Below are positions 4,683 to 49,105 of a DNA stretch of 64,000 nt, in pieces (the stretch's first letter is position 1; each line of letters starts with the position of its first letter). The position numbers were made by a program, and so were the translations under genes. The stretch is taken from the NCBI GenBank assembly GCA_048537945.1, contig CM108484.1:19009034-19073033 (forward strand), given 5' to 3'. The notes under the pieces are model-generated. The model did no database searches, was not told the DNA's origin, and saw only the letters and a program-made list of their open reading frames with translations. The stretch comes from Mnemiopsis leidyi (Eukaryota).

Positions 4683-4752
4683 TAATGTTTATAGTACTTT
4701 TATAGTACTTTTATAGTATTTTTGTAGTACTTTTGTAGTACTTTTATTATTT
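4683..4752 (+). repeat. 11-13-bp unit x5 (GTACTTTTATA) starting at the GT of the receptor exon 7 donor
   Basis: G|GTAATGTTTATA GTACTTTTATA GTACTTTTATA GTATTTTTGTA GTACTTTTGTA GTACTTTTATTA. Every unit begins with a donor-like GTA. Confidence 0.8.
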
Positions 4753-5682: not shown

Positions 5683-6003
5683 AACAGGTAAAGTGTCTAA
5701 ACCCAGATAATCCCAGGTAAAGTGTCTAAACCTAGATAATCCCAGAAAAGTGTCTAAACCCAGATAATCCCAGGTAAAGTATCTAAACCCCGCTATTCTC
5801 AGCTAAAGTATCTAAACCCAGATAATCCCAGGTAAAGTATCTAAACCCCGCTGTCCCAGGTAAAGTGTCTAAACCCCGCTATCCCCAGGTAAAGTATCTA
5901 AACGCAGATAATCCCAGGTAAATTGTCTAAACCCAGATAATCCCAGCTAAAGTATCTACACCCCGATATCCCCAGGTAAAGTATCTAAACCCCGCTATCC
6001 CAG
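5683..6003 (+). repeat. 30-bp tandem array, about 10 units (CCCAGATAATCCCAGGTAAAGTGTCTAAAC), ending exactly at the receptor exon 8 acceptor
   Basis: Each unit contains TCCCAG|GTAAAGT. The last unit, ...CGCTATCCCAG|GTAACTGGACCGAAC, is the real acceptor plus the exon start at 6003/6004. Confidence 0.9.
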
Positions 6004-6207
6004 GTAACTGGACCGAACTCTGGCTGATAACGGAGTACCACGAGCTCGGCTCTCTCTACGACTTTCTCTCTCAAAACACGCTAAACAACTACGACATGTT
6101 GATATTCGCGCTGTCCATCGCTAACGGTCTGACATTCCTGCACAGCGAGATCAGGGGAACAAGCGGAACTTTGAACGCTAACGGAAACAACTACCACTGT
6201 ACTTCAG
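6004..6207 (+). CDS. type I receptor exon 8 (L45 loop and kinase hinge, with an unusual C-terminal extension)
   Basis: Acceptor ctatcccag| at 6002-6003. Translates GNWTELWLITEYHELGSLYDFLSQNTLNNYDMLIFALSIANGLTFLHSEIRGTSGTLNANGNNYHCTS. The L45 loop [14 protein letters not shown] matches the ALK4/5/7 (Smad2/3-type) ADNKDNGTWTQLWL. Donor TTCAG|GTGTGTG at 6208 (phase 1) is the only GT giving an open join to exon 9. This implies a 14-aa insertion (TLNANGNNYHCTSG) relative to the vertebrate [12 protein letters not shown]. Confidence 0.7.
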
Positions 6208-8135: not shown

Positions 8136-9045
8136 GTCACGCCATCATTACTGACCTATTAGATTATTGCTTTTAATTCATGAGGCTTTCAAAGCATTTT
8201 CTCTAGCCTAATTAGTCTGGAAATCTGTAGTCTGTACAAAGGGATGTGCTGGCATTTCGGTCTGGGATCCCTGTATGGGGGAAGATGTGAAGGAGGAGAA
8301 GGGGAAGAAGAAGAAGAAGAAAGGAAAGGGGAGCAGATCAAATAGCAGATGAAGAGTGGTTAGGGGAAGGGAGAAGTAGAAGGAAGGGGTGAAGGTTGTA
8401 TGTTTACAGCCTAGTTTCTATGGAGAACACAGCTACAGGGTGCGGGTTGGTCAGCAGGAGCGATAGCAGACTAGCTGAGTAGTACACTAGTGATCCTAGC
8501 TTGTTAGAACTCATAGCTTCAGACAGTTAGAGAAGTTTATATTCGCTTTGTCATTCGACCATTCAGAATAAGTATATGCATTCTGAAGCATGCATTATAT
8601 TAACTTCTTAGAGTGCACATTCTTAAAATGCCAACATTTCAAGACTCGAGATTCTATAAATTCTAAAATTTTTATCTCGAAACCTATCATGCGAGAGTGG
8701 CTTGGTTTTAACGTTACTCTGGAAGAGTTAATCCTGCTGGGTGAAGTAGCCAATGATCATGTGGGGAGACACTGAACAGTACTTAATTTCAAGGCAGGTG
8801 TGGTGTCAGACAGTTAACGTCCAGATTATTAACATAAACAGTACTTAATTAACATAATTCTGTCCACCCAGCTCCATCTTACTATGGGTTATTGTTATCG
8901 GTAATTCCGCTATCGGAATATTGGCTAGACCGCCAACTCCGGCACACCTGGACATATTATAGTCTACAGTTCCATAGTACTAGTACTATAATATTTATAG
9001 TAGTCTAACCGTACCAGTCTACGCCTAGAAGTCAGATAAAGTAAA

Positions 9046-9932
9046 GAACATGTTACAGAGACCATGTTACAGGGACCAAGTTACAGAGACCACGTTACAG
9101 AGACCATGTTACAGAGACCATGTTACAGAGAACATGTTACTGATACCATGTTACATAGACCATGTTGTAGAGACCATGTTACAGAGACCATGTTACAGAG
9201 AACATGTTACAGAGACCATGTTACAGAGACCATGTTACAGAGACCATGTTACAGAGACTAGTTACAGAGGCCATGTTACAGAGACCATGTTACAGAGACC
9301 ATGTTACAGAGACCACGTTACAGAGACCATGCTACAGGGACCATGTTACAGAGACCATGTTACAGGGACCATGTTACAGAGACCATGTTACAGAGACCAT
9401 GTTACAGAGACCATGTGTTACAGAGACCATGTTACAGAGACCATGTTACAGAGACCATGTTACAGAGACCATGTTACAGAGACCATGTTGTAGAGACCAT
9501 GTTGTAGAGACCATGTTACAGAGACCATGTTACAGAGACCATGTTACAGAGACCATGTTACTGAGACCATGTTACAGAGACCACGTTACAGAGACCATGT
9601 TACAGAGACCATGTTACAGAGACCAAGTTACAGAGACCATGTTACAGAGACCATGTTACAGAGACCATGTTACAGAGACCATGTTACAGAGACCATGTTA
9701 CAGAGACCATGTTACAGAGACCATGTTACAGAGACCATGTTACAGAAACCATGTTACGGAGACCATGTTACAGAGACCATGTTACAGAGACCATGTTACA
9801 GAGACCATGTTACAGAGATCATGTTACAGAGACCATGTTACAGGGACCATGTTGTAGAGACCATGTTAAAGAGACCATGTTACAGAGACCATGTTACAGA
9901 GATCAAGTTACAGAGACCATGTTACAGGGACC
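9046..9932. repeat. 14-bp minisatellite (GACCATGTTACAGA), about 63 units, in receptor intron 8
   Basis: Direct periodicity. Every unit carries an acceptor-like TGTTACAG motif. The ORFs listed here by the track are repeat artefacts. Confidence 0.95.
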
Positions 9933-10975
9933 AATAGACTACATTTTATTGCATTTCTAATCGTCACGTGTTTTGCATCATGAATATTGAATATGTACAG
10001 CTTGTTGTTACAAACTGTTTAGCGTGTCCTTGTTTAAAGTGTAAAGTACAATGCCATGTGGATGTATAATGTATAATGTACTGTAACTTATATAAAGTCA
10101 TTACACTACACGCCCCCTCCTTGTGTTACAGTAGATCTAGCTCAACATTAGGCCCCCAATGACTAGGGAGCTAAAAGAGCTTAAAGAGCCTAAGTAGACA
10201 TGAAGAATGGGGAAATGTGGCTCGCTAGACTGTAGTTTTGTAATTATCTAGAAGAAACTTTTGCGGCGTCGTAACATGGGTTTCTTGGTGGTGCAGAAAA
10301 AAGTAACTCAAGAGACATTAGTATCAGTCGTAGTATTGGTTACTTTGCAGTTAAGAGTTTGCATTGATATTGATTTACAGGATAATTTAAGACAAAGTAG
10401 TGGAAGCATTGAATTAAAAGAACCATGGTTACCATGGTAACTATGGTAGCGATAGTTACCATTCCAGCTTACAATAAGTAACTAAGCGAGACTTGTTCTG
10501 GCTGAAGAACTGTTACAACTTACAGTCTAATACAGTCTAATTAGGATTTCGCGAACGTTTGTCATAAGTAACACTATCTCTCGTAGTTTCGAAGTTACTA
10601 ACGACAAAATACTGTCTAAAGCAACCGTGACGACTATTGAGTTTCAGATTATTCAACATTAGCTTCCCTCATTATCAACTTACAGGGCTACCCGCTCTTT
10701 CTCAGATGCTTTATTTACATGAGGGTTGTAAATTAACCGCTGTATGCCTATCCGATTTGAATGAAAGAATATTGACCAAGGAAATTTTGACAATAGATAT
10801 TATTGTGGCAGTGTGCTTTAATATGTTACGTATTTAATGCGCTATACGTTCAATTTGGTTATTGTGTACATTGGTCACAGCAGCTAAACCTTTATTCTTT
10901 GTAAGCACACATCCCAATGAAAACTAATCACTTATTTCCTTTATATCAGTTCCCTTTCTAACACATCTCTTGCAG

Positions 10976-11135
10976 GATACAAACCAGCGATAGCGCACCG
11001 GGACGTGAAGAGTAAGAACATTCTAGTGAAGAGTAACATGGAGTGTTGTATCAACGACCTGGGTCTGGCAGTCCGACACGACAGTAAAAACGACGAGGTG
11101 GAGCGACCCCCGGACCACAGAGTCGGCACCAAGAG
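10976..11135 (+). CDS. type I receptor exon 9 (catalytic loop and activation segment)
   Basis: Acceptor tctcttgcag| at 10974-10975. Translates (G)[52 protein letters not shown](R). HRDxKSKN and DLGLAVRH are diagnostic of TGF-beta-family receptor kinases. Donor AAGAG|GTGGGG at 11136 (phase 2). Confidence 0.9.
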
Positions 11136-12907
11136 GTGGGGTTTTCTTTTACACCGTCACATGAGTCACTGTTATGTTTACACAGAGTCGGCACCAAGAG
11201 GTGGGGTTTTCTACACGAGTTTTTGTTTCTTTTACACCGTCACATGAGTCACTGTTTTGTTGACACAGAGTCGGCACCAAGAGGTGGGGTTTTCTACTCG
11301 AGTTTTTGTTTCTTTTACACCGTCACATGAGTCACTGTTATGTTTACACAGAGTCGGCACCAAGAGGTGGGGTTTTCTACACGAGTTTTTGTTACTTTTA
11401 CACCGTCACATGAGTCACTGTTATGTTTACACAGAGTCGGCACCAAGAGGTGGGGTTTTGTACAGGAGTTTTTGTTTCTTTTACACCGTCACATGAGTCA
11501 CTGTTATGTTTACACAGAGTCGGCACCAAGAGGTGGGGTTTTCTACACGAGTTTTTGTTTCTTTTACACCGTCACATGAGTCACTGTTTTGTACACAGAG
11601 TCGGCACCAAGAGGTGGGGTTTTCTACACGAGTTTTTGTTTCTTTTACACCGTCACATGAGTCACTGTTATGTTTACACAGAGTCGGCACCAAGAGGTGG
11701 GGTTTTCTACACGAGTTTTTGTTACTTTTACACCGTCACATGAGTCACTGTTATGTTTACACAGAGTCGGCACCAAGAGGTGGGGTTTTCTACAGGAGTT
11801 TTTGTTTCTTTTACACCGTCACATGAGTCACTGTTATGTTTACACAGAGTCGGCACCAAGAGGTGGGGTTTTGTACAGGAGTTTTTGTCTCTTTTACACC
11901 GTCACATGAGTCACTGTTATGTTTACACAGAGTCAGCACCAAGAGGTGGGGTTTTGTACAGGAGTTTTTGTCTCTTTTACACCGTCACATGAGTCACTGT
12001 TATGTTTACACAGAGTCGGCACCAAGAGGTGGGGTTTTGTACAGGAGTTTTTGTTTCTTTTACACCGTCACATGAGTCACTGTTATGTTTACACAGAGTC
12101 GGCAACAAGAGGTGGGGTTTTGTACAGGAGTTTTTGTTTCTTTTACACCGTCACATGAGTCACAGTTATGTTTACACAGAGTCGGCACCAAGAGGTGGGG
12201 TTTTCTACACGAGTTTTTGTTTCTTTTACACCGTCACATGAGTCACTGTTATGTTTACACAGAGTCGGCACCAAGAGGTGGGGTTTACTTTTACACCGTC
12301 ACATGAGTCACTGTTATGTTTACACAGAGTCGGCACCAAGAGGTGGGGTTTTCTACAGGAGTTTTTGTTACTTTTACACCGTCACATGAGTCACTGTTTT
12401 GTTTACACAGAGTCGGCACCAAGAGGTGGGGTTTTCTACACGAGTTTTTGTTTCTTTTACACCGTCACATGAGTCACTGTTATGTTTACACAGAGTCGGC
12501 ACCAAGAGGTGGGGTTTTCTACACGAGTTTTTGTTTCTTTTACACCGTCACATGAGTCACTGTTATGTTTACACAGAGTCGGCACCAAGAGGTGGGGTTT
12601 TCTACACGAGTTTTTGTTTCTTTTACACCGTCACATGAGTCACTGTTATGTTTACACAGAGTCGGCACCAAGAGGTGGGGTTTTCTACACGAGTTTTTGT
12701 TTCTTTTACACTGTCACATGAGTCACTGTTATGTTTACACAGAGTCAGCACCAAGAGGTGGGGTTTTCTACACGAGTTTTTGTTTCTTTCACACCGTCAC
12801 ATGAGTCACTGTTATGTTTACACAGAGTCGGCACCAAGTGGTGGGGTTTTCTACACGAGTTTTTGTTTCTTTTACACCGTCACATGAGTCACTGTTATGT
12901 TTACACA
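11117..12907 (+). repeat. 83-bp tandem array, about 21 units; each unit contains the last 20 nt of receptor exon 9 plus its 5' splice site
   Basis: Unit CACAGAGTCGGCACCAAGAG|GTGGGGTTTTCTACACGAGTTTTTGTTTCTTTTACACCGTCACATGAGTCACTGTTATGTTTA. The first unit is the genuine exon/intron junction at 11135/11136. Confidence 0.95.
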
Positions 12908-14756
12908 TGAGTTTTTGTCATGTTTTTCGTTATACACGATACGAGTTCTTGTCATTTTTAACGTCTGCTTAACTCTAAATCGCAATCCACCATCTCTCAT
13001 TAAACTTAAACATTTAAACTGGAGCCTACTGAGGAATCCCTCTAAACTCAACACGGCTTGTCTAGATCTCGCCGTATCTTCAACTAAAGTTAAAGTAAAA
13101 CAACAAGAAGCCTCGCTAGAAACTCCACTCTGTCGTGTAGTATTATAGACGGCTGTTTTCTCGCTTTAAAACCACTAGACTTTCTCTCTACGTGAGGTGT
13201 CCTGTCTAGACGTCGGGCTGCTGCACTTATCTGTCTCCGTCCTAAGTCAGCTGGTCTCCTTTTGTAGTGTGACGTCATCTCGTGTGGTGTGACGTCATCT
13301 CGTGTGGTGTCATGGCAACTTGTATAGTGTGAACAACACCACGAACATGCTTTACGCCGGGATCTCACGATTTTCGAATTAACTCGGATCTGGGTTACTT
13401 TTTTTACAATTCTTTATTTAAACAGGAAGATATAATTCCTGTAATAATTCGCTATAAGTCAGGACTGGCCGGGACATAGTTATCGTAAAAACGCACGTCA
13501 GACCGCCTTGGTATTATGTATTAAGTCCAGTAATAATATTCAAATATTCACGGCAGAGTGTGACCGGTGAGAACACAAATTAAATGAAAGAAGGCCGCTA
13601 AGTCCGGAGGGAGATATGTAGACCGATAAAGCGGGGGTGTTCCCCCCACAACCTCTCACTCAGCTATCATCCTGACCAGCTTCCTTGTCACAGCTAACCT
13701 CCTCCCTTCTACAGTCAGTCTAGCTGCTAGTTCTCTGGGTGTAATTTAGTGGGGTCTGGTCAGTGGGGTCTGGGGTTAATGTGACACCACTGTAGACGTA
13801 ACACCACTTCCTGTGTTGTGAAATGACGTAACACATGTACAGGGGGACGCTAATTGGTAACGTAGGTTCCAATTTTCAGCTACAACCCAACCAGACGTAG
13901 AAAAAGTGGTATCGTGTTTCACGGTTCTCATTGGCCACATTTCTCACTCACCCTCTTTTCTCCTCCCCCCATTGGTGGTATTGGTCGTGCTCTCTCTCCC
14001 CATTGGTCAGATTATCTCGTGTTTCACTCCTTATTGGTTACCCACCCATCTAGACCTCCTTGACAGAATTTCCTTTAAATTAACTTTAAACAGGTCAGTC
14101 TACACAGTGCTTCAGGTGAGAATTCGGTGTCTCTAGCGTTTCAACACAGTGTCTATTATAAGAATAGGATGAGATCGATGTAGCCGTGGTGGAATTAGTT
14201 GTTTTGTCTTCGCGCGACTAAACAACGCGTGAATGGAGGAACTAAAGTTAACAGCTGTGTGCTGTGTAGTAACCAACAGAAATCCGACCTACTCAAACAC
14301 CCAGGAATATTGTATTTACTTATTTACTACTGAACTTTAAACCTTGAGCGTGAGTCTCACTTTCAGCTTTGGAGTGTTGCCAATGTGAACTTATTTTAAA
14401 AGTGCCTTACTCAACTAGCGAAATATCCGGGTTAATTTGGCCTGGTCTTAGTTGTATAAAAGTAGAAACACTGAGTAGAAAACGGTTACAAGACTTGTTT
14501 ACCTTCTGTACATTGGTCATTCCTGTTGGAACCAAACACCTAGGCTCACTTCACACTTCACCTCTAGCTGACGAAGATTAGTACACATGTTTCTTGAAAG
14601 CTTCTGTAACAACAAACTCATATCTATTTATGTCTATTAACCCCCCTCGAAAGACAAACACCTGTGTATAAGACTGTTTATGGATCAGAAATAAACAAAT
14701 TACGAAAACAATGTAATATCAATTTGTCACATCTTCTAATCTATTTCGATTTCCAC

Positions 14757-14851
14757 CTCTTTTACTCAATAGTGATTGGCTGATGAATCTTTTACTCAAT
14801 TCTGATTGGGTGATGAATATTTTACTCAATTCTGATTGGCTTATTACTCCC
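14757..14851 (+). repeat. 30-bp unit x3 (TTTTACTCAATTCTGATTGGCTGATGAATCT) abutting the receptor exon 10 acceptor
   Basis: Three tandem copies end at ...CTGATTGGCTTATTACTCCCAG|GTACATGG. Each carries a CCAAT-box reverse complement (ATTGG). Confidence 0.85.
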
Positions 14852-14853
14852 AG

Positions 14854-14978
14854 GTACATGGCTCCAGAAGTGCTAGACGACACATTAAACCCCCGCTCCT
14901 TTGACAGCTACTGTAAAGCTGACATCTACTCATTTGGACTTGTTCTATGGGAGATCGCTTCCAGAACTGTCAACGCAA
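14854..14978 (+). CDS. type I receptor exon 10 (P+1 loop YMAPEVLDD, kinase C-lobe)
   Basis: Acceptor ttactcccag| at 14852-14853. Translates (R)[41 protein letters not shown]. Donor GCAA|GTACGT at 14979 (phase 1). Confidence 0.9.
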
Positions 14979-16515
14979 GTACGTTCTTCTTCACTCCTAA
15001 TCAGTAATCTACTGCTTCTACATTTTTAGAGATGTATAATTCTTCTTTATAAACTAGAGCTATATTTCGTACTTTGTACTTGTAGAGCATCGTGCTTTGA
15101 TGTAATTTAATTGACGATGGAATTCAATTGAAGCTGAAATTCTTTCTTTTTCTGTACACGCAGCTTTATGCACATGTCACGTGTCAGTGTGTGTGTGTGC
15201 CAGGCAGATGACACAACAGATAGCGATACACTAGTATGTGTTAACAGTTACTCTCACAGCCTTGGTCCTTCCTTAACAGACTTATGGTATTTCATCATTG
15301 CTATAACGCCCATTACCTGGCCAAGGAGTTGCTGCCCCTGAATTTTATATTGTCCGATGATTTAATAAAAAGCCCAGACCTGCCATAGTTTAGACCGTAT
15401 TTTCTGGTCCGCTGTCCCCCCTGTTCATATTGGATGATCCTTAGCATCTCGTTCTTTGTGCTCATTGGTCAAGCCGTGCCACGAGGAGAAAATCTTACGT
15501 TTTCATTGGTCGGTTTTGAGAATATTCCTCCTTCAGACTAGAGAGGAAACCTGTTCCTAAAGTTCTAAGGATTTGTAGCATTGAGTATTGAAAGATAAGG
15601 AAAGAGCTGAGGTTACCCATATAGAAAACAGTGAGGTTTATTTGCCGGAATTAGAAGTCTTGGCTTCCCAATGCTCGGGGCCTGTAAATGGTGTTAATAA
15701 GCTAAGTCGCTTACTCCAGACGAACACGTGACCTTTACAAGCCAATCACCGAGCTCCTATACACTGAACCAACCAATCACCGAGCGTTAATTCTACCTCT
15801 GATACCTCCGCTGGAGTTCAGCAAAAATACCAACCTGAAATGCACACTATTTAAATGTATCCTTATAGAAGTCGTCTTGCATCACGACTGGGTTTCTGGC
15901 ATCACGTGACTTGATCCTGGCATTGTGATTGGTCGGTTGCTTTTAGCGTTTCTCTACTCGATTATACGCGTTTATACCCGTTTTGGTCACCTGTTCGAGC
16001 AAACGAATTTATCGGGACACTAAAATTTAATATGGGTTTTAATAAAATACATGGGTTTTAATAAGATGTATGTGCCTAGTTATAATAAAGAGAGATGGTG
16101 CACAATATGTTAATATAGAGGTAACTGTTTTAAGGTACGTAGTGCTCTGCAGAGACCATCAAATAGTTTTCATGCAATCACATAGTATACAACGTTTCAT
16201 TAACATATCATGTAATCCTAGCAATCCTACAAGAAGTATGTGGGTCTTGTCACGATACATTAGAGTTCATCAGTACAGATGTCACTGTAACACTTCTATT
16301 TCTGTAACGATACTGATTTCGGAACATTTTCAATATACCAATCCTTGATGATAATTATTCTTCAGAAATTGAGAACACTTATCCGCCGATTTTAAAGAGT
16401 AACTTACTCCGGTCGTTACCATGGATCACAGATTTAGTTATATAAAAGCAACAGCACCTTCACTTTGATCGGTAGAAAGTGAAAAATGAGAAGTTTTCTT
16501 CGTCTTAATGGCTAC

Positions 16516-16833
16516 ATCTATCAATGCATCCATGAACACTCGCAGTAAGAGTAACTAGAGTACTAATCCCGACACTTACACTATTAATGCATCCATGAAC
16601 ACTCGCAGTAAGAGTAACTAGAGTACTAATCCCGACACTTACACTATTAATGCATCCATGAACACTCGCAGTAAGAGTAACTAGAGTACTAATCCCGACA
16701 CTTACACTATTAATGCATCCATGAACACTCGCAGTAAGAGTAACTAGAGTACTAATCCCGACACTTACACTATTAATGCATCCATGAACACTCGCAGTAA
16801 GAGTAACTAGAGTACTAATCCCGACACTTACAG
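16516..16833 (+). repeat. 59-bp tandem array, 5.3 units, terminating exactly at the AG of the receptor exon 11 acceptor
   Basis: Unit CTATTAATGCATCCATGAACACTCGCAGTAAGAGTAACTAGAGTACTAATCCCGACACTTACA. Internal unit boundaries read ...CTTACA|C, and the final one reads ...CTTACAG|GTGCTCC. Confidence 0.9.
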
Positions 16834-19230: not shown

Positions 19231-20652
19231 AAAATAAAAAGGCACACCCTGATCCCTCATGTTGTCAACTATGTACTGAGTAAATCCTTGATTGGAATCA
19301 CGAATAGGACCAAGACTCAAGCTAACGAACTATCCGATTTTGTCGCGAGGTCTCATCTAAATACTAGTTTATAAATTTAATTCATTCAATCTGATTAAAT
19401 AATCGATTTACCAAGCATTCTGCCAGATTTTTATTCATCCTTTGGTGAAATTTGGTAAAATTTTACATTTTGGATAAGATAAAGCATTTAACAGCAAGAG
19501 GCTTGGTATATCGAAAATAAACGTTATATTTAAGTTTAACAGCAAAGTAGTAAAAGCTATAACCATACCTTCATAGTTACCCTTCTAGTTTATGCAACTT
19601 TAGAACCTCTTGACTTAAGTTATGTAAAATGTGCATGATTGAATTGTGCTGTTTTGACATTTAAGCGTAAACTACCACATGTATAATATTTATTACAACC
19701 CGCTTCTAGCTGATGAGTGATTACTGTAGGTCAATGTGTTTTTATACGCTTTTTAACTTATTGAACTGTTTTAAAAGAAACACGTGTATTTGTGTGCTCG
19801 TCTTAACAGTGCAATAATTTCAGTGTTGCTTCCGTTTTAACATGTGCGATAATGTCCGATTTTTGTATTCACGTGAACTTTTTGATACATCATGACAGTT
19901 TCCATAATGGTCGGCGTGTTCGATAAAATGTAAAGTCGTAAAACGTAGACTTCTATCCTGTTCCCTGCTGTATTTTCAAGTCTGTTTCCATTGATGTCAC
20001 TGAATAACCGATATTGGTTTGTGAGAGATTATGTTTTGAGTTTTGAGTTACCTGAACCGTTTAAGGTAAAATCGTTGTTTATACGAAAAATTTTAATCAT
20101 TATCTTTAAAAATACAAAACCTAAATCTGCAGCCATTTTATTTTTCATTTACTTGATATATTGATTGCATACATCATAAAATTAAAGTAAAGAAGTATTT
20201 GCTTTTGTATTCTGTCAGTAATCAAGTCGTTTTATTTCGATTACAACTCAAAATCATTTATCTTTTCATAACAACGAACAAATAGTTACCACTACTGCTA
20301 CTACTACTGATGGTACTATGAAAGTCAGAGCTAAGTCTGGTCTATTGCAGATATCGACGTCCAATCCTCCATAAGTCCCTGTCTGGATGCTTATGCAGTG
20401 TCCCGCCAGTTTTAATCTTCTGCTACTTAGCTCATGACATTGTCTGATAGTTTCACATGTAGAACGTCATTGTCCCTCCATAAGAAGTTCAGCAGGTAGC
20501 ATCTTAGTGTTTCAGGACGAGTAACAGAAGGAGGATAGAAGTTCCGCATCATTGTAACAGAAGGGGGATCACTGCTATTCCGTACGAATTGTCTGTCCCA
20601 GGCTCTATTGATAACTTTGTCGACCTATTTATAACGAGAGTTTGAATCCAAG

Positions 20653-20890
20653 CTATAAGAAAGTTGTCCTATTCCGTACAAGAGTTCTGACTCTGGGGGC
20701 TGGTGTTGGCTGGGCAGGTTTGTCAGGCGAGGGGGGTCTAATTGATCTGATAGCAGAGTAATGTACTGGGTTCGGGATAAGGACGCTCCCAGATTTCTTG
20801 CTCTTGTAGTACATCAGATCTTCGAATTTGTCCTTTACTGGCTCCTCACTTTTTTCATTTCCCTCGCTCTCAGACTTGTCTGCCTCGTCT
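20653..20890 (-). CDS. terminal coding exon of an unidentified minus-strand gene (acidic then Pro-rich tail: DEADKSESEGNEKSEEPVKDKFEDLMYYKSKKSGSVLIPNPVHYSAIRSIRPPSPDKPAQPTPAPRV...)
   Basis: An 87-aa minus ORF preceded by a good acceptor, cttcctttcag| at plus 20891-20901. It lies between the receptor 3' end and the MVP 3' end. I could not recognise a family, and upstream exons are not confidently placed. Candidates are minus-strand segments at 22260-22320 and 22500-22650 with donor and acceptor consensus. Confidence 0.35.
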
Positions 20891-23618
20891 GAAAGGAAGT
20901 GAGATGAAGTTATCATCAGGGCATGAGCATTTTATAGGTAAGACAGTCCCAAGAGCTGCATGGCAATAGACATTCAAAACTGGAAAACTTTAGATTTACA
21001 TTTCTTTGGCGTTTTTAATATTTCATCATCAAAATACTATGCCAAATATTTCAAAAATCTTCTCTTCATATGATCTTCTAATTCTGTTGCAAGATGGCAA
21101 AGTACAAACTCACCGAAACTCTTGTTTTGGGATCCAGGTTTTCTGGGAGAAGTACTTCTACTTTTTTCCCTGGAAAGAACTTGCTGCCTACTGTTTGTAG
21201 GCCCCCCTACTTTTTGAGCTTGTATTTTACTTAGGCCGCCCTCAATCTTAGTTTTTGTTCGCATCAAGAAAGGGAAAAACTTGGGGTCCCAACGTTTGTT
21301 GTTGGAATTTGCCAGAAAATTGATGGTTGAATTGTTGCCTGACCTTGGCTCCTCCATACTTGTTTTCGACCTGAGGAAGTCAAATGTAGGCCCGAGTTTT
21401 ATCCCATGAATCCAGCTACAAGTACAGCTAATCAAGTTAGTCGTTATCCGTTATGCCGGGTTACCCCTGTTTAGTGTTTAAAGCAAAATTGAGCCGGTAA
21501 AATTTGTCTCGTCAATCTGAGACACTCTGATTAACTAAGCTTTAGAGTGGATTAACTAAAATATAAGCTTTACTTTTAGCAGACCAATTTAAGTTAAGTT
21601 AGATTTCAATTTAATTATGAAAGTGGGCATAATGGCTAAACGAGAAACTTTCACCTGCTGAATATACAAGAAGAGGGAATATGGACTCTTTTTGAGGTTC
21701 CAAGGAAAGTTCTAGAAGGAGCAGTAACACTGCCTCGCTGTCCTCCCGTCTCTTCCTCTACTATTGCTACTAGTCCCGCATCCATCCTAAAATTGAAGTC
21801 TTTGATTTTTGAGACGACTTAAAGGAAATACGGTTGCAAAGTTCAAAGTTTTTGAATAGAATGTAACCTTAATTACTAAGTCTTAAATCTTAACTGATAA
21901 CTTTTAGTTATTGTGTGAGCCCAATAATATTTTTACCTTGTCTTATAGCTGAAGAAAGTTTTAGACCGTTCCATCATGATCCCATAATTCGTTATACTCC
22001 AAGCTCGCAAACTTTCCAAACTTTCTGTATCATTTTCTTTTTCAATCTGTGAAGAGACGGAGTGTCAACACGACAAAGTTTTTTGTTATCGTCCTCAATC
22101 GACCAGATTGACATTGATCTGGTAGATTGATGACAATAACTAAAACATAAGAAGGCTTATAGATCTAGAAGTATAAGAGATCAACCTTGGTTATTTCCTT
22201 GTCAGAAAGCAAAGTAGTACTTTCAGCAGCTTTTCGTTCAAGAGTTTCTCTGGTGCACCTCAGTTTCTTCATCTGGGGGAAGAAACAGCATTTCATATGT
22301 ATCAAGATGATATATCAAAATTCTTTTTCACCCATTGATCATGATAATTTGATCGCTTCAAACTCAACAGGCCTCTGTAGGAATATTTGAAAAAAACACC
22401 CTGTTTTGGGCTGCTTTTCTGCTCGACTCTACCATAACAGACCACCGCGTCTAGAGTCTTTTACTTCGCAGAATTAAACTGTTATTGGAGGCTAGGTTAG
22501 ATGAACAAACCTCCGAGTTGATCTCCTTGAGGCGAAAGACCCTGCTTTGTTCTACACAACTGTTGTACCGACTTTGCTCAAGCTGGAGGGATCTCCGTCT
22601 CTGGAGAAACTTTCTGTCGCTTGGCATCATCTTGAGGGCGCTTCTTTTCAATCACACCGATCTATAGAGCTGTCAAACTGGGAGACGACTTGATATTATT
22701 AAAGTCAGATAATTGTCTTGACAAGCTTGTTCTCAAACTCCAAGGAGAGGAGCTGACCGGAGATAGAGGGCTGTTGGTCTTGACGTCAAGTTTTACCACG
22801 GTGCAAGAACTTTCCTGTGATCTGACGAAACTGCTGAACTGCATCTACACAAATCATTAGTTTTTAGAGCGGAACTAAAGCACACAATCTGCACTTTAAT
22901 CAATTGCAAAGCTTACAAGCCATGCTCAGCTCTCTATCTCTCGGACCTGCGGGTGTGAGCATGTTGTGCTAATTGAACACCTTGCACTCGCTATATTTCA
23001 CATTTTCACTTCATTTCGAGGTCAGGTTAGGCATCTTTCCAGGTAAAATCAAGCAATTTTCTATTTTCCTGCTTCCGCGTCCAATGTGGATTTGTTTTGA
23101 CGATATGACATAATTTCAAGAAGAAAAACAGGTGGTTAAACGGAACATTTGTTCAAAACCGTCAGCATCTACAATATGCAAATTGTAATATTAATGATAG
23201 AAGTTAATACACTACAAGCTAATATATCATAACGTATATCTATAAATCATCAAAATTTAACCTTACAAAAGAAAGTTGGGTGCAAGTGATTGACTCATAA
23301 AAGTTTAAATGTAAATCAAAAAATAATCTAATGTTATTTATATAATCTAATGATTATGTAAAACGATCAACTACAAGATCTGGAAATCGCAGACAGAAAA
23401 CACAGAACTTTTTTAAAACAATCTTCACAACATAATCATAATTCTTACACAACAACTAAAAATACTATACCTCACAATAAAGGTTTACACTTGATTATAG
23501 AAATCTCAAATCATTGAGCAGCCAGTATTCTTTTATTAAACGAGCGCGATAAAAGTGTTCTAGTTGACCCTGTCAACTGATAGTTCCCTCTCAGCCCCTG
23601 TTACTCGGATAACAAGTT

Positions 23619-26343: not shown

Positions 26344-26683
26344 CCTGTGGAAGTCGTCGAAAGGCACTGCAGCTACAGCACCTCTGATGCGAGAGGCAAG
26401 GGCTTTACACGCATCGCCAACAAAATCAGGAACAGCGAACAGAGCGGACGCGTGCTCCGCATTATCCTGAGTATAATCGAAGTGCCAGTTGTAGGAAAGC
26501 TGGAGCGCGAGACGCGCGTGGTCGCTTGTCTCCACTGTGATGATGTCTGTCATGAAGTCAGGACCAAGAAGGAGACAGAGAGAGCGAATACAGTTGGGAC
26601 GTTTGGGTTTCCCGCCGGACAGGGAAAGTTGGGTGAAGTGTTCGTCTGGAGCCAACATCACTAGGTCGGGTCCAAACACAACC
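26344..26683 (-). CDS. MVP: MVP exon 9: (R)[113 protein letters not shown]
   Basis: Acceptor ctattcag| whose AG is at plus 26684-26685. Donor AGG|GTAAGA. Near-colinear with the vertebrate [71 protein letters not shown]...FDDFHK. Confidence 0.9.
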
Positions 26684-26830
26684 CTGAATAGGGAACAGGG
26701 ATTAAACTATAGATCTCAATCACTAGGTCGGGTCCAAACACAACCCTAAATAGGGAACAGGGATTAACGTATAGTTCTCAATCACTAGGTCAGGTCGAAA
26801 CACAACCCTAAATAGAGAATAGGGATTAAA
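26650..26830 (-). repeat. 62-bp triplication that copies the acceptor and first 28 nt of MVP exon 9
   Basis: The genuine junction (minus) is attcag|GGTTGTGTTTGGACCCGACCTAGTGATG. Two more copies lie upstream in the intron with tttag|GGTTGTGTTTGGACCCGACCTAGTGATTGAGA and tttag|GGTTGTGTTTCGACCTGACCTAGTGATTGAGA. Confidence 0.9.
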
Positions 26831-27041
26831 CTATAGTTCTTAATCCAAATTTTAAATAGTGATGTATTGTTATAGTTATTTGTTAAATGAAGAAATGATT
26901 TAACTATACTAAATACAGAAATAGTAAAAGCAACATTTATTTAGTCAGCAATCTTACATAACTATTTTCAACACATATTTAAAAGATTTGAGCAACACAA
27001 ATTTAAACACAAATTTTAGATTTTAGCAAGTTCTATCTCAC

Positions 27042-31200: not shown

Positions 31201-34200
31201 GGTAACAGTTAGCTCTACCTCACTGCTCTAGCTCTATTCTGTTGTCATGTACTAACTACTTAGTTACCTAGCTCTACCTCACTGCTCTAGCTCTATTCTG
31301 TTGTCATGTACTGACTACTAAGTTACCTAGCTCTACCTCACTGCTCTAGCTCTATTCTGTTGTCATGTACTGACTACTTAGTTAGCTAGCTCTACCTCAC
31401 TGCTCTAGCTCTATTCTGTTATCATGTACTGACTTCTTAGTTACCTAGCTCTACCTCACTGCTCTAGCTCTATTCTGTTGTCATGTACTGGCTGCTTAGT
31501 TAGCTAGCTCTACCTCACTGCTCTAGCTCTATTCTGTTATCATGTACTGACTACTTAGGTAGCTAGCTCTACCTCACTGCTCTAGCTCTATTCTGTTGTC
31601 ATGTACTGACTACTTAGTTACCTAGCTCTACCTCACTGCTCTAGCTCTATTCTGTTGTCATGTACTGACTACTTAGTTACCTAGCTCTACCTCACTGCTC
31701 TAGCTCTATTTTGTTATCATGTACTGACTACTTAGTTAGCTAGCTCTACCTCACTGCTCTAGCTCTATTCTGTTATCATGTACTGACTACTTAGTTAGCT
31801 AGCTCTACCTCACTGCTCTAGCTCTATTCTGTTATCATGTACTGACTACTTAGTTAGCTAGCTCTACCTCACTGCTCTAGCTCTATTCTGTTGTCATGTA
31901 CTGACTACTTAGTTACCTAGCTCTACCTCACTGCTCTAGCTCTATTCTGTTATCATGTACTGACTACTTAGTTAGCTAGCTCTACCTCACTTCTCTAGCT
32001 CTATTCTGTTGTCATGTACTGACTACTTAGTTAGCTAGCTCTACCTCACTGCTCTAGCTCTATTCTGTTGTCATGTACTGACTACTTAGTTACCTAGCTC
32101 TACCTCACTGCTCTAGCTCTATTCTATTATCATGTACTAACTACTTAGTTAGCTAGCTCTACCTCACTGCTCTAGCTCTATTCTGTTGTCATGTACTGAC
32201 TACTTAGTTACCTAGCTCTACCTCACTGCTCTAGCTCTATTCTGTTATCATGTAGTGACTACTTAGTTACCTAGCTCTACCTCACTGCTCTAGCTCTATT
32301 CTGTTATCATGTACTGACTACTTAGTTACCTAGCTCTACCTCACTGCTCTAGCTCTATTCTGTTATCATGTAGTGACTACTTAGTTACCTAGCTCTACCT
32401 CACTGCTCTAGCTCTATTCTGTTATCATGTACTGACTACTTAGTTACCTAGCTCTACCTCACTGCTCTAGCTCTATTCTGTTATCATGTACTGATTACTT
32501 AGTTAGCTAGCTCTACCTCACTGCTCTAGCTCTATTCTGTTATCATGTACTGACTACTTAGTTACCTAGCTCTACCTCACTGCTCTAGCTCTATTCTGTT
32601 GTCATGTACTGACTACTTAGTTAGCTAGCTCTACCTCACTGCTCTAGCTCTATTCTGTTATCATGTACTGACTACTTAGTTAGCTAGCTCTACCTCACTG
32701 CTCTAGCTCTATTCTGTTATCATGTACTGACTACTTAGTTAAATAGCTCTACCTCACTGCTCTAGCTCTATTCTTTTATCATGTACTGACTACTTAGTTA
32801 GCTAGCTCTACCTCACTGCTCTAGCTCTATTATGTTATCATGTACTGACTACTTAGTTACCTAGCTCTACCTCACTGCTCTAGCTCTATTCTATTATCAT
32901 GTACAGACTACTTAGTTAGCTAGCTCTACCTCACTGCTCTAGCTCTATTCTGTTGTCATGTACTGACTACTTAGTTAGCTAGCTCTACCTCACTGCTCTA
33001 GCTCTATTCTGTTGTCATGTACTGACTACTTCGTTACCTAGCTCTACCTCACTGCTCTAGCTCTATTCTGTTGTCATGTACTGACTACTTAGTTAGCTAG
33101 CTCTACCTCACTGCTCTAGCTCTATTCTGTTGTCATGTACTGACTACTTAGTTAGCTAGCTCTACCTCACTGCTCTAGCTCTATTCTGTTGTCATGTACT
33201 GACTACTTAGTTAGCTAGCTCTACCTCACTGCTCTAGCTCTATTCTGTTGTCATGTACTGACTACTTAGTTAGCTAGCTCTACCTCACTGCTCTAGCTCT
33301 ATTCTGTTGTCATGTACTGACTACTAAGTTAGCTAGCTCTACCTCACTGCTCTAGCTCTATTCTGTTGTCATGTACTGACTACTTAGTTACCTAGCTCTA
33401 CCTCACTGCTCTAGCTCTATTCTGTTATCATGTACTGACTACTTAGTTAGCTAGCTCTACCTCACTGCTCTAGCTCTATTCTGTTGTCATGTACTAACTA
33501 CTTAGTTAGCTAGCTCTACCTCACTGCTCTAGCTCTATTCTGTTGTCATGTACTGACTACTAAGTTAGCTAGCTCTACCTCACTGCTCTAGCTCTATTCT
33601 GTTGTCATGTACTGACTACTTAGTTACCTAGCTCTACCTCACTGCTCTAGCTCTATTCTGTTGTCATGTACTAACTACTTAGTTACCTAGCTCTACCTCA
33701 CTGCTCTAGCTCTATTCTGTTGTCATGTACTGACTACTTAGTTACCTAGCTCTACCTCACTGCTCTAGCTCTATTCTGTTGTCATGTACTAACTACTTAG
33801 TTACCTAGCTCTACCTCACTGCTCTAGCTCTATTCTGTTGTCATGTACTGACTACTTAGTTAGCTAGCTCTACCTCACTGCTCTAGCTCTATTCTGTTGT
33901 CATGTACTGACTACTTAGTTAGCTAGCTCTACCTCACTGCTCTAGCTCTATTCTGTTGTCATGTACTGACTACTTAGTTAGCTAGCTCTACCTCACTGCT
34001 CTAGCTCTATTCTGTTGTCATGTACTGACTACTAAGTTAGCTAGCTCTACCTCACTGCTCTAGCTCTATTCTGTTGTCATGTACTGACTACTTAGTTACC
34101 TAGCTCTACCTCACTGCTCTAGCTCTATTCTGTTATCATGTACTGACTACTTAGTTACCTAGCTCTACCTCACTGCTCTAGCTCTATTCTGTTGTCATGT

Positions 34201-37200
34201 ACTAACTACTTAGTTAGCTAGCTCTACCTCACTGCTCTAGCTCTATTCTGTTGTCATGTACTGACTACTAAGTTAGCTAGCTCTACCTCACTGCTCTAGC
34301 TCTATTCTGTTGTCATGTACTGACTAATTAGTTAGCTAGCTCTACCTCACTGCTCTAGCTCTATTCTGTTGTCATGTACTGACTACTTCGTTACCTAGCT
34401 CTACCTCACTGCTCTAGCTCTATTCTGTTGTCATGTACTGACTACTTAGTTAGCTAGCTCTACCTCACTGCTCTAGCTCTATTCTGTTGTCATGTACTGA
34501 CTACTTAGTTACCTAGCTCTACCTCACTGCTCTAGCTCTATTCTATTATCATGTACTAACTACTTAGTTAGCTAGCTCTACCTCACTGCTCTAGCTCTAT
34601 TCTGTTGTCATGTACTGACTACTTAGTTACCTAGCTCTACCTCACTGCTCTAGCTCTATTCTGTTATCATGTAGTGACTACTTAGTTACCTAGCTCTACC
34701 TCACTGCTCTAGCTCTATTCTGTTATCATGTACTGACTACTTAGTTACCTAGCTCTACCTCACTGCTCTAGCTCTATTCTGTTATCATGTAGTGACTACT
34801 TAGTTACCTAGCTCTACCTCACTGCTCTAGCTCTATTCTGTTATCATGTACTGACTACTTAGTTACCTAGCTCTACCTCACTGCTCTAGCTCTATTCTGT
34901 TATCATGTACTGATTACTTAGTTAGCTAGCTCTACCTCACTGCTCTAGCTCTATTCTGTTATCATGTACTGACTACTTAGTTACCTAGCTCTACCTCACT
35001 GCTCTAGCTCTATTCTGTTGTCATGTACTGACTACTTAGTTAGCTAGCTCTACCTCACTGCTCTAGCTCTATTCTGTTATCATGTACTGACTACTTAGTT
35101 AAATAGCTCTACCTCACTGCTCTAGCTCTATTCTTTTATCATGTACTGACTACTTAGTTAGCTAGCTCTACCTCACTGCTCTAGCTCTATTATGTTATCA
35201 TGTACTGACTACTTAGTTAGCTAGCTCTACCTCACTGCTCTAGCTCTATTCTATTATCATGTACAGACTACTTAGTTAGCTAGCTCTACCTCACTGCTCT
35301 AGCTCTATTCTGTTGTCATGTACTGACTACTTAGTTAGCTAGCTCTACCTCACTGCTCTAGCTCTATTCTGTTGTCATGTACTGACTACTTCGTTACCTA
35401 GCTCTACCTCACTGCTCTAGCTCTATTCTGTTGTCATGTACTGACTACTTAGTTAGCTAGCTCTACCTCACTGCTCTAGCTCTATTCTGTTGTCATGTAC
35501 TGACTACTTAGTTAGCTAGCTCTACCTCACTGCTCTAGCTCTATTCTGTTGTCATGTACTGACTACTTAGTTAGCTAGCTCTACCTCACTGCTCTAGCTC
35601 TATTCTGTTGTCATGTACTGACTACTTAGTTAGCTAGCTCTACCTCACTGCTCTAGCTCTATTCTGTTGTCATGTACTGACTACTTAGTTACCTAGCTCT
35701 ACCTCACTGCTCTAGCTCTATTCTGTTATCATGTACTGACTACTTAGTTACCTAGCTCTACCTCACTGCTCTAGCTCTATTCTGTTGTCATGTACTAACT
35801 ACTTAGTTAGCTAGCTCTACCTCACTGCTCTAGCTCTATTCTGTTGTCATGTACTGACTACTAAGTTAGCTAGCTCTACCTCACTGCTCTAGCTCTATTC
35901 TGTTGTCATGTACTGACTACTTAGTTAGCTAGCTCTACCTCACTGCTCTAGCTCTATTCTGTTGTCATGTACTGACTACTTCGTTACCTAGCTCTACCTC
36001 ACTGCTCTAGCTCTATTCTGTTGTCATGTACTGACTACTTAGTTACCTAGCTCTACCTCACTGCTCTAGCTCTATTCTGTTGTCATGTACTGACTACTTA
36101 GTTACCTAGCTCTACCTCACTGCTCTAGCTCTATTCTGTTGTCATGTACTAACTACTTAGTTAGCTAGCTCTACCTCACTGCTCTAGCTCTATTCTATTA
36201 TCATGTACTAACTACTTAGTAACCTAGCTCTACCTCACTGCTCTAGCTCTATTCTGTTATCATGTACTGACTACTTAGTTACCTAGCTCTACCTCACTGC
36301 TCTAGCTCTATTCTGTTGTCATGTACTAACTACTTCGTTAGCTAGCTCTACCTCACTGCTCTAGCTCTATTCTGTTGTCATGTACTGACTACTTAGCTAG
36401 CTCTACCTCACTGCTCTAGCTTTATTCTGTTGTCATGTACTGACTACTTAGTTAGCTAGCTCTACCTCACTGCTCTAGCTCTATTCTGTTATCATGTACT
36501 AACTACTTAGTTAACTAGCTCTACCTCACTGCTCTAGCTCTATTCTGTTATCATGTACTGACTACTTAGCTAGCTCTACCTCACTGCTCTAGCTCTATTC
36601 TGTTGTCATGTACTAACTACTTGGTTAGTTAGCTCTACCTCACTGCTCTAGCTCTATTCTGTTGTCATGTACTGACTACTTAGTTACCTAGCTCTACCTC
36701 ACTGCTCTAGCTTTATTCTGTTGTCATGTACTGACTACTTAGTTACCTAGCTCTACCTCACTGCTCTAGCTCTATTCTGTTGTCATGTACTGACTACTTA
36801 GTTACCTAGCTCTACCTCACTGCTCTAGCTCTATTCTGTTATCATGTACTGACTACTTAGTTAGCTAGCTCTACCTCACTGCTCTAGCTCTATTCTGTTG
36901 TCATGTACTGACTACTTAGTTACCTAGCTCTACCTCACTGCTCTAGCTCTATTCTGTTATCATGTACTAACTACTTAGTTAGTTAGCTCTACCTCACTGC
37001 TCTAGCTCTATTCTGTTATCATGTACTAACTACTTAGTTAGCTAGCTCTACCTCACTGCTCTAGCTCTATTCTGTTTCATGTACTGACTACTTTGTTACC
37101 TAGCACTACCTCACTGCTCTAGCTCTATTCTGTTGTCATGTACTGACTTCTTAGTTACCTAGCTCTACCTCACTGCTCTAGCTCTATTCTGTTGTCATGT

Positions 37201-37865
37201 ACTGACTACTTAGTTACCTAGCTCTACCTCACTGCTCTAGCTCTATTCTGTTATCATGTACTAACTACTTAGTTAGTTAGCTCTACCTCACTGCTCTAGC
37301 TCTATTCTGTTATCATGTACTAACTACTTAGTTAGCCAGCTCTACCTCACTGCTCTAGCTCTATTCTGTTTCATGTACTGACTACTTTGTTACCTAGCTC
37401 TACCTCACTGCTCTAGCTCTATTCTGTTATCATGTACTGACTACTTAGTTAGCTAGCTCTACCTCACTGCTCTAGCTCTATTCTGTTGTCATGTACTGAC
37501 TACTTAGTTAGCTAGCTCTACCTCACTGCTCTAGCTCTATTCTGTTGTCATGTACTGACTACTTAGTTACCTAGCTCTACCTCACTGCTCTAGTTCTATT
37601 CTGTTGTCATGTACTGACTACTTCGTTACCTAGCTCTACCTCACTGCTCTAGCTATATTCTATTATCATGTACTAACTACTTCGTTAGCTAGCTCTACCT
37701 CACTGCTCTAGCTCTATTCTGTTGTCATGTACTGACTACTTAGTTAGCTAGCTCTACCTCACTGCTCTAGCTCTATTCTGTTGTCATGTACTGACTACTT
37801 AGTTAGCTAGCTCTACCTCACTGCTCTAGCTCTATTCTGTTGTCATGTACTGACTACTTAGTTAC
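31201..37865. repeat. 60-bp minisatellite, about 110 units (AGTTACCTAGCTCTACCTCACTGCTCTAGCTCTATTCTGTTGTCATGTACTGACTACTT) inside an MVP intron
   Basis: Near-identical units with variants such as G/A in TGTTG/ATCATG and TTACC/TTAGC. The array starts 10 bp from the acceptor of MVP exon 4. Confidence 0.95.
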
Positions 37866-44700: not shown

Positions 44701-46494
44701 CACAAAAGTGCCGCGATTCATTATTGGTCGAGGGGTTACCACGTGCCGCGCGCCACGTGATTCTTTCTCCAACGTTAAAGTATCAAAATCACGTGTTAAT
44801 TTGATGACGCAAGCACCCACCTGACCGCGCGCAGTAGCTCAGCTTTCCTTCGTCGGTAGAATCGAGCGTAAAATTTTGTCGGTTTAGTATAAAACGTGGT
44901 GCTGGTCTCATTTCAGAGGTTGAATGTTTCTTGTTTGTTTGTTGGGCATTCGAAAGTTTTTACCTCTTTCAGTCATGATTTTCAATTCTAGCTTAAATAG
45001 TGACTCCTCCATTGCTTGTTGTTTCAGCTGGCAATCAATTTCGTGGTTTTACCTAGAAAAACGATGGATTGCTGCTAATCATCAATCATAATTCAATCAT
45101 TGCGCTGTGGCCGCATACGGGGTTTTCGAGCTAACTAGCAGCATCTCGATCTGACAGCAGTACTCAGAAGAAAGTTGTACACATACAGTCCACCAAATCT
45201 TTTGCCATTTTACTACATGAACAGTGTTGACTTAAGTACCTGTAGAATTTTCAATTCAAGCGTTCAAGTTAGGGTTCAAGTTAGGGTTAAATCCCGTATC
45301 GGTATGAAATAAATCTCAAACAGTTCAATTCCCCTGTTGGCTTGAATAGAATTTCGTCACGACCTTCTTCAATTCAGAGTAAAAAAGACATGAATGTCGT
45401 TAGTTTGATTATAGCCAGAGTTGCAGTTTGACATAATAGCTACACCGATCTCCGACCTATTTTGTTGCTGTTGCTATTCACACTGACAGTTGACAAATCT
45501 TAGAAAAGTTTCAATTATACTAGTAAGCAGTACACTTGGCTGTTTTTGACGGTGGTAAGCAAGTGGTACTGTCCTCATTTCTGTAAATTTTTGTTCTGTC
45601 AGATCCATTACTGTGTCGATCTATGAGCCTACCAAATAATTCTGTCAAAACTTGGTTCTTGCTCGCTTTACTTTTAGCTTGACTTGTGTGATTGGTTTTG
45701 TTGCACGGATTTAAATGCTGACCTATAATTAGTTGTGTTGGGGTTTTCAGACACAGGCAAAATGTTATATCCCAATCGAATTTGTGTGGCATCAAGTGGC
45801 GCTCTCGGCCACGTGTATGGAAGGACTAGATACCGATTTTATAATCACAGATATCAACTCACCCTCAGTTACGAGCTCTGTTATTTACTATCCAAAGTTT
45901 TACGTTACTGTTGATACGGAGTCTTAACGGTACGTTGAGTTCCAGAGCTGTGACTTGTGGCTTTATAAAACGTATCTCACATTTTCGTCTTATTATAGGA
46001 GACAGGGCCGAAACCGAACGGCAGGGAGAAGGTGATATCTCACATTTTGACTTTTTCGAAAAGTTTTTTAAAGCCTCAGCCTTCACATCAAGTCATACTG
46101 CGACCTATATACTACTGCTATAAATATTCTCATATTCTATTAATAATGTAAGTTATAGTCGAAATTACACCGCTTAAAAGCAGCTGTCAATATCGGCTTC
46201 TTCCGCAATCCTTCTCATTCACCTTAAGCTGATCTTTGACGCCCGACTCCCTTTTCTTCACACTTTCTGATGAGTTTTGCCTGAACTCACCAGTCTAAAC
46301 AGCATCATTACAGTTGGTTACTGACAAAATACGCAAAACGAAGCCGGTTGACCGGACCGACAGACCGGACGGGCGTGCCTATATCAGTTGAAAAGTAGGT
46401 CCAAACTTTAGAAGTTTTACGTTTAGACGTCTTTAGCGAAAGAACAGTTAAACTGTCTGGGACACGTTAAGATTCCTCATTTCGGGCATTTCTC

Positions 46495-48448: not shown

Positions 48449-48476
48449 AACTCTCTCTCTTTCTCTATCTCTCTCT

Positions 48477-48563
<87 letters not shown>

Positions 48564-48954: not shown

Positions 48955-49105
<151 letters not shown>

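Follow-up and report, generated by a model that had tools for sequence, protein, structure and literature searches.

Introduction

In the human F7 gene, intron 7 (IVS7) carries a 37-bp variable number of tandem repeats (VNTR) whose first monomer spans the boundary between exon 7 and IVS7 (Borensztajn et al. 2006, PLoS Genet, PMC1557585). The pseudo-5' splice sites in the repeats, identical to the authentic donor, are functional yet silent. The most upstream site is selected in a 5'-to-3' oriented process, and raising the U1 complementarity of a pseudo-site up to 91% did not change this choice (PMC1557585). Here we describe an array of the same type in the ctenophore Mnemiopsis leidyi, in which the end of exon 9 of a TGF-beta type I receptor gene is repeated, together with the 5' splice site, in the intron that follows. 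The gene lies in a stretch of 64,000 nt (assembly GCA_048537945.1, CM108484.1:19,009,034-19,073,033), hereafter called the window, and all coordinates are those of the window unless they are given for locus L001, the ortholog in Bolinopsis microptera.

Other junction minisatellites are mentioned in the F7 report. According to that report, LMNB2 (100 bp x 10-15) and intron 4 of PDGF (81 bp x 16-18) carry junction minisatellites from which only the authentic donor is used, whereas in IFI6 (6-16), with 25 pseudo-sites, and in intron 13 of CBS, with 15-20 repeats, two proximal pseudo-sites are constitutively used in each gene (PMC1557585). Another related case is the Rogers model, in which an intron is gained by tandem duplication across AGGT (PMC3265369, PMC4974935).

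The Mnemiopsis array belongs to the F7 IVS7-type junction minisatellites, which are already known from at least five human genes, and it shows the same behaviour in the known mRNAs. It is an intronic tandem array, its first monomer lies across an exon-intron boundary, and the donor is reiterated. As in F7, identical pseudo-5' splice sites come after the authentic donor, and normal mRNA is spliced from the most upstream site only. Both donors are G-rich and non-consensus, UGG/gugggu in F7 and GAG/gugggg in Mnemiopsis (a slash marks a splice junction or another boundary). The 37-bp F7 unit includes 4 nt of exon and is present in 5-9 copies, whereas the 83-bp Mnemiopsis unit includes 20 nt of exon and is present 22 times. 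Some of the F7 pseudo-sites are in frame, whereas all 21 in Mnemiopsis give stops. For F7, polymorphism, competence of the pseudo-sites and oriented selection were shown experimentally, whereas the Mnemiopsis array is known from sequence and cDNAs. LMNB2 and PDGF, as listed in PMC1557585, are comparable to the Mnemiopsis array in unit size, in copy number and in the use of the authentic donor only, but they are vertebrate genes. IFI6 and CBS, listed there too, also have an authentic donor reiterated many times, but they get extra isoforms from proximal pseudo-sites; none is known in Mnemiopsis, and none could be in-frame there. In the Rogers model, too, a tandem genomic duplication repeats splice signals and splicing conceals the duplicate from the mRNA. 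There, however, a duplication within an exon makes a new intron, whereas in Mnemiopsis an old intron, common to Bolinopsis, was merely lengthened. In the literature we found no report of junction-enriched minisatellites in ctenophores or genome-wide, and no such array reported in the phylum.

We think it probable that the Mnemiopsis array is a young, neutral, junction-seeded minisatellite, in which the choice of the first donor leaves the reiterated ones unused.

Structure of the array

The program TRF detected an array with a period of 83 bp at 11143-12912, with 95-97% matches. The 26-mer CACAGAGTCGGCACCAAGAG/GTGGGG, the exon 9 end joined to the start of its donor, occurs 22 times at no more than one mismatch. 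The first occurrence, at 11116, is the genuine exon end; the 21 others are downstream, the last at 12821. Elsewhere in the window the 26-mer was found on neither strand, with 0 chance matches expected. A 30-mer from the intron-only part of the unit marked the same 22 sites in a window-wide search. Cut in register, the array consists of 19 units of 83 nt, one of 81 nt and two of 65 nt (unit 0 and unit 14), and both 65-nt units share one and the same 18-nt gap. The consensus unit, CACAGAGTCGGCACCAAGAG/GTGGGGTTTTCTACACGAGTTTTTGTTTCTTTTACACCGTCACATGAGTCACTGTTATGTTTA, is composed of the last 20 nt of exon 9 and the first 63 nt of intron 9, and the mean divergence of the units from it is 1.5 substitutions (1.8%). 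Unit 0 (11116-11180) starts 20 nt before the exon 9 donor and holds the genuine junction; except for its first 20 nt, the whole array is inside intron 9.

On the plus strand, the window contains the whole of a gene for a receptor serine/threonine kinase. Translation of its 12-exon model matches KAL5258003.1 of M. leidyi, found by homology search, exactly; an 11-exon model, which is without a 47-aa juxtamembrane exon, was rejected. The 90%-identity cluster of KAL5258003.1 includes AEP16397.1, which is annotated as TGF-beta type I receptor of M. leidyi and is 99% identical over 549 aa. The protein fits the layout of such a receptor (Cys-rich ectodomain, transmembrane segment, GS-like region and Ser/Thr kinase), and the motifs HRDxKSKN and GTKRYMAPE are visible in the alignment; precomputed Pfam annotation of KAL5258003.1 gives kinase domains only. 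The host gene is the M. leidyi TGF-beta type I receptor. The cDNA of AEP16397.1 was obtained by rapid amplification of cDNA ends (PMC3169577). From the sequential accession numbers, it is probably JN380196, MlTgfRIb. Exon 9 codes for the part of the kinase from the catalytic loop through the activation segment, ending ...PPDHRVGTK(R), and the last Arg codon (AG/G) is split at the donor and finished by exon 10.

An earlier reading of the window from its letters (the sequence-only reading) had described about 21 tandem copies downstream of exon 9, with more than 95% identity, each made from the true exon 9 end and the true donor. The count of 21 and the TRF matches bear out the first statement, and the 26-mer matches, the exact 12-exon model and the in-register cutting bear out the second. 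The exon 9 donor had also been placed correctly, at 11135/11136. The first 26 nt of the unit had been described as exon codons fused to the donor, which is right if GTGGGG is counted; the exon-derived part proper is 20 nt. The first decoy, however, is not 83 bp downstream of the genuine donor as had been stated but 65 nt, since unit 0 is a 65-nt form.

The sequence-only reading had further held that the array is not an ordinary dispersed satellite, and we agree. The window is very rich in minisatellites (67 TRF rows), and so one may ask whether the array is such a satellite, a transposon-derived repeat abutting the exon by chance, or an assembly artefact. All of these are highly improbable. 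Every unit holds the 20 nt coding for the conserved HRVGTKR, which is ancestral exon sequence common to Bolinopsis. No other copy was found on either strand of the window, in the protein collection (via the repeat open reading frame) or in metagenome contigs, where a unit-spanning 53-mer had no match. An artefact is further opposed by the unit variants, which form an ordered higher-order pattern and are not identical collapsed copies.

Age and origin of the array

In Bolinopsis microptera the ortholog (L001, GCA_026151205.1) shares the 12-exon structure of the gene, and its exon 9 and donor position are the same, with the exon ending ...CACAGGGTCGGAACTAAGAG/gtcagt. A comparison with a related species had been suggested in the sequence-only reading, and it was informative: the 83-bp-type array is absent from intron 9 of the Bolinopsis ortholog. 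Mnemiopsis and Bolinopsis have three synonymous differences in the last 20 nt of exon 9, and the decoys carry the Mnemiopsis state there. Four decoy copies have single substitutions at other positions of the exon-derived part. Since Bolinopsis has no array and the decoys are Mnemiopsis-like, the array arose, or was homogenised, well after the genera split. By this sequence comparison the array is young and lineage-specific, whereas intron 9 itself is old and common to Bolinopsis.

The array end reads CACA/TGAGT, and every unit, including the exon-derived part, begins with the same CACA. Both duplication breakpoints thus lie at a 4-nt microhomology. Units 5-8 repeat the variants of units 1-4 in the same pattern, and other variants occur in blocks (units 9-12). 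Unequal exchange in a multi-unit register would yield such a higher-order pattern of units, and the pattern implies that unequal exchange probably took place in the past. The CACA edges, the recurrent 65-nt forms and the higher-order pattern of variants agree with an origin by slippage or unequal exchange that started at the junction, as the sequence-only reading had proposed. We regard the anatomy of the array and this origin as nearly certain.

The unit variants give no sign that the decoy donors have been selected for or against. Variant types number 3/26 in the junction part of the unit and 10/57 in the rest, which is no significant difference (P = 0.75).

Strength of the decoy donors and outcome of their use

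The donor 9-mer GAG/GTGGGG is identical in 20 of the 21 decoys, and 17 of the 21 are identical over the 26-mer. Its duplex with the 5' end of U1 has a free energy of -9.4 kcal/mol, which is among the stronger values of the 11 donors in the gene (-2.8 to -10.7). On a splice-site position weight matrix built from 35 introns modelled in the two ctenophores, it scores 9.17 bits; this places it 11th among the 35 real donors and, against intronic GTs, at the 99.6th percentile. By these local standards the decoys look like good, competent donors. The sequence-only reading had called each copy a potentially competent pseudo-donor; this is apt for the 20 identical ones (9.2 bits, rank 11/35). The last is weakened by an A>T change at -2.

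Use of decoy 1 would add 65 nt and lead to a stop in exon 10, giving 452 aa instead of the normal 554 aa. Use of any later decoy would run into a stop inside the second unit, giving 460 aa. For every decoy the stop lies upstream of at least two exon junctions, and all the predicted products are without the P+1 loop and the C-lobe. The loss of the P+1 loop had been foreseen in the sequence-only reading, and it applies to all 21. The open reading frames inside the array are mechanical repeat frames.

With 21 high-scoring U1-complementary sites within 1.8 kb, the array might be a functional landing pad for the U1 small nuclear ribonucleoprotein (snRNP), which would serve definition of exon 9 or protect the long intron from premature cleavage, or its units might be decoy exons that promote retention of intron 9. 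A 3' splice site-like sequence, ...TTTACACAG/, located 15 nt upstream of the donor in each unit, would suit the latter idea. This in-unit site (...TTTACACAG/AGT) scores only -0.18 bits, however, below 34 of the 35 real acceptors (rank 35 against the 35) and at the 71st percentile of intronic AGs, so that decoy exons are unlikely. Moreover, the array is not kept in the sister genus, the donor part of the unit has no conservation signal, and the genuine donor is already above the average of the gene. We consider a U1-related function of the array very improbable.

Because the in-unit acceptor is at the bottom of the range of real acceptors, the unit was not accepted as a 15-nt in-frame microexon (VGTKR), a recursive site or a decoy exon. 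An RNA structure that hides the decoys but spares the genuine donor was unsupported: the predicted accessibility of the 9-mers was uniformly low, and the genuine site was no higher. A scan of 10.5-15 kb with Rfam detected no RNA family.

Use of the first donor in known mRNAs

The sequence HRVGTKR/YMAPEVLDD is present in the cDNA AEP16397.1 and in all five annotated isoforms, and thus the first, genuine donor is the only one used in the known mRNAs. Two annotated isoforms are truncated; they diverge after exon 10, by read-through of intron 10, and not at intron 9. The 82-aa repeat open reading frame, which covers all three unit frames, had no match among 5.8 billion predicted proteins, and so no called product contains repeat-derived peptide. 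A similar choice is made at two arrays in the Bolinopsis ortholog (described below): nine independent RNA-seq assemblies encode the exact protein, which needs the first of four exon 8 donors and the last of eight exon 5 acceptors.

The sequence-only reading had left two possibilities, that the decoys are suppressed or that they are a built-in source of nonproductive isoforms, and the transcript evidence favours silence. In the second case, meaningful and possibly regulated use of the decoys would lower receptor output, that is, regulated unproductive splicing. The decoys are strong and identical to the genuine donor, each of them brings in a premature stop with at least two exon junctions downstream, and the human genes IFI6 and CBS use two proximal pseudo-sites constitutively (PMC1557585). 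However, no decoy appears in the cDNA or the five isoforms, though nonproductive intron 10 isoforms are annotated at this very locus, and no repeat-derived peptide is among the 5.8 billion predicted proteins. As Bolinopsis is without the array, the array is not a conserved regulatory device, and the donor part of the units has no conservation excess. Regulated unproductive splicing is therefore an unlikely role for the array.

We prefer the explanation by a neutral junction-seeded minisatellite, which may be put as follows. An 83-bp segment straddling the exon 9/intron 9 junction was probably duplicated in tandem, with breakpoints at the CACA microhomology, and replication slippage or unequal exchange would then have raised the number of units to 22. 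Each unit brought along the 20 terminal nt of the exon with its donor, so that the intron would now hold 21 repeats of an intact, fairly strong 5' splice site. The spliceosome would take only the first, genuine copy, leaving the mRNA unchanged. The likely cause is position: by analogy with F7, the first donor after the exon 9 acceptor may be committed first, through 5'-to-3' or exon-definition selection, and the later copies would be silent passengers rather than actively repressed sites. Leaky use of a decoy would produce a frameshifted or stop-containing mRNA, which is expected to be degraded. Most likely the array is a neutral passenger without function, for which F7 is again the analogy.

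Several points weigh against this explanation. The RNA evidence consists of cloned or annotated cDNAs and is not read-level, so that decoys may be used at a low level. Assembled or cloned cDNAs reveal the dominant isoform only, and targets of nonsense-mediated decay are under-represented among them. Oriented selection of 5' splice sites has been demonstrated in mammalian cells only. The array is known from a single M. leidyi assembly, and its copy number could be polymorphic or mis-assembled. Finally, an apparent excess of arrays at exon boundaries, described in the next section, gives a hint that more than chance may have been at work in the origin.

A single locus carries little weight. It is a clean example, from an early-branching animal, of a known curiosity, namely a donor-reiterating minisatellite that leaves the mRNA unchanged. 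It suggests that the 'use first donor' behaviour, known experimentally from mammalian cells only, operates in ctenophores too, in which case it would be an old trait of the metazoan spliceosome. In practice, 22 near-identical donor contexts can cause short RNA-seq reads and gene predictors to misplace the exon 9-10 junction. The genuine and decoy sites have the 20 nt ahead of the cut in common and part only farther upstream, with ...CCCGGAC/CACAGAG at the genuine site and ...GTTTA/CACAGAG at the decoys.

The annotated receptor isoforms also vary at other sites. Exon 2 has a 15-nt alternative acceptor, with or without VTTHS (1828-1842), and exon 3 has a 9-nt alternative donor that gives a GSL insertion (2339-2347). 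Read-through at the exon 10 donor (14979-15010) leads to the truncated receptor products.

Table 1. Positions of the array, its donors and the surrounding exons and intron in the window
Feature	Position	Strand	Basis
Coding exon 9 (160 nt)	10976..11135	+	12-exon model (= KAL5258003.1); Bolinopsis ortholog exon the same, in the same phase
Tandem array, 22 whole in-register units, head-to-tail	11116..12903	+	TRF, 26-mer and 30-mer matches, in-register cutting
Genuine 5' splice site GAG/GTGGGG, cut after 11135, phase 2	11133..11141	+	cDNA and five annotated isoforms
Intron 9	11136-14853	+	12-exon model
Twenty decoy donors, 9-mer GAG/GTGGGG identical to the genuine one	11198..12759	+	Position listing from 12-exon model
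Last exon-like nt of decoys 1-20	11200, 11283, 11366, 11449, 11532, 11613, 11696, 11779, 11862, 11945, 12028, 12111, 12194, 12277, 12342, 12425, 12508, 12591, 12674, 12757	+	
Decoy donor 21, -2 A>T (GTG/GTGGGG), weakened to 6.25 bits	12838..12846	+	
CACA at right array edge (CACA/TGAGTTTTTG...)	12904..12907	+	In-register cutting
Unique remainder of intron 9, containing the 30-bp x2.8 array at 14758-14841	12904..14853	+	
Coding exon 10 (125 nt), (R)YMAPEVLDD...	14854..14978	+	12-exon model

Arrays at other exon boundaries

Other arrays reach splice junctions in the same gene and in a neighbouring one. In the Bolinopsis receptor gene (TGFbRI), a 43-bp unit x8, composed of 20 nt of intron and the first 23 nt of the exon, ends on the real exon 5 at its acceptor (L001 12297-12647). 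At the exon 8 donor of the same gene, a 46-bp unit in four copies (x3.6) joins 22 nt from the end of the exon to 24 nt of intron with a GTAAAT donor, and the array starts at the real exon 8 end (L001 14911-15077). In the Mnemiopsis receptor gene, a 29-bp x11 array (5685-6007), with units CCCAG/GTAAAGT..., ends on the exon 8 acceptor (6003/6004) and takes in the first 4 nt of the exon. A 63-bp x5 array (16513-16832), with 99% identity between its copies, ends 1 nt short of the AG at the exon 11 acceptor, and its copies read ACAC where the real acceptor reads ACAG. The neighbouring gene, on the minus strand, encodes the major vault protein (MVP), and a 62-bp x3 array lies over its exon 9 acceptor, with 35 nt of intron and 27 nt of exon (26657-26845). 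Bolinopsis MVP has an independent duplication at the same exon 9 acceptor, with 11 nt of exon and a period of 43 (L001 ~33950-34000).

About 25% of the intron sequence of the receptor gene is tandem repeat. As about a quarter of intron sequence is repetitive, chance alone should yield ~0.4 junction-spanning arrays per gene, so that in the M. leidyi genome one such array is nothing unusual. The sequence-only reading had implied that such an arrangement is rare; this has to be withdrawn, both on this expectation and because the same arrangement occurs in at least five human genes (PMC1557585).

The number of arrays at boundaries was compared with a null model that lets the outermost unit of an array span a junction, using 31 arrays in three gene models of one syntenic region. 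The test was post hoc. A permutation null that bars arrays from exons was rejected as too strict, as it exaggerated significance. Under the fair null, 1.36 junction-spanning arrays were expected and 5 observed (P = 0.0095); for arrays no more than 25 nt from a boundary, the expectation was 2.43 and the count 10 (P = 1.5e-4). When the exon 9 array was left out, the counts were 4 (1.24 expected, P = 0.033) and 9 (2.31 expected, P = 1.5e-4), respectively. There may thus be, in this one syntenic region and by a post hoc test, a further 3-4-fold excess of arrays near exon boundaries.

These results, and the junction-spanning arrays in TGFbRI and MVP of both Mnemiopsis and Bolinopsis, raise a question that concerns origin and not function, whether splice junctions of lobate ctenophores preferentially produce or preserve arrays, either by breakage associated with splicing or transcription or by protection from deletion next to exons. 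If so, minisatellites would arise or persist preferentially at junctions, and reiterated donors and acceptors would be common and fast-evolving in these animals. However, only three gene models, all from one syntenic region, were sampled, and the Bolinopsis MVP segment contributes little. The test was designed after the pattern had been noticed, and ~1.2-1.4 spanning arrays are expected by chance, about a quarter of the intron sequence being tandem repeat. We hold such a preference to be possible but rather doubtful. If it is true, it would point to a junction-associated mechanism of duplication or of deletion protection, and lobate genomes would be a large-scale test bed for the choice among identical sites (first donor, last acceptor). 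If the boundary excess holds genome-wide, splice-site choice and the tolerance of tandem duplication at junctions could be studied in hundreds of natural experiments in ctenophore genomes.

In the 29-bp array at 5685-6007, each unit is acceptor-like and also has a near-consensus donor (CAG/GTAAAGT). An 11-bp x5.5 array (4688-4747) starts 6 nt past the exon 7 donor of the receptor gene, and the 30-bp x2.8 array in intron 9 ends 12 nt upstream of the exon 10 acceptor. Intron 8 of the receptor gene contains a 14-bp unit x63 (AGACCATGTTACAG, 92% matches) at 9045-9933. Intron 3 of the MVP gene is mostly filled by a 59-bp x113 array (6.6 kb, 96% matches, 31210-37864), whose end is separated from the exon 4 acceptor by 18 nt.

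Other features of the window

A third gene lies on the minus strand at 20650-22640, between the receptor gene and the MVP gene; it is syntenic with Bolinopsis and has five conserved coding blocks. The far part of the window is occupied by a large palindrome or inverted duplication (~46100-54100 and 56050-63200), with colinear blocks that are 93-98% complementary and a spacer of ~2 kb. Each arm of the palindrome contains a 54-bp minisatellite, a 21/41-bp array and dinucleotide runs.

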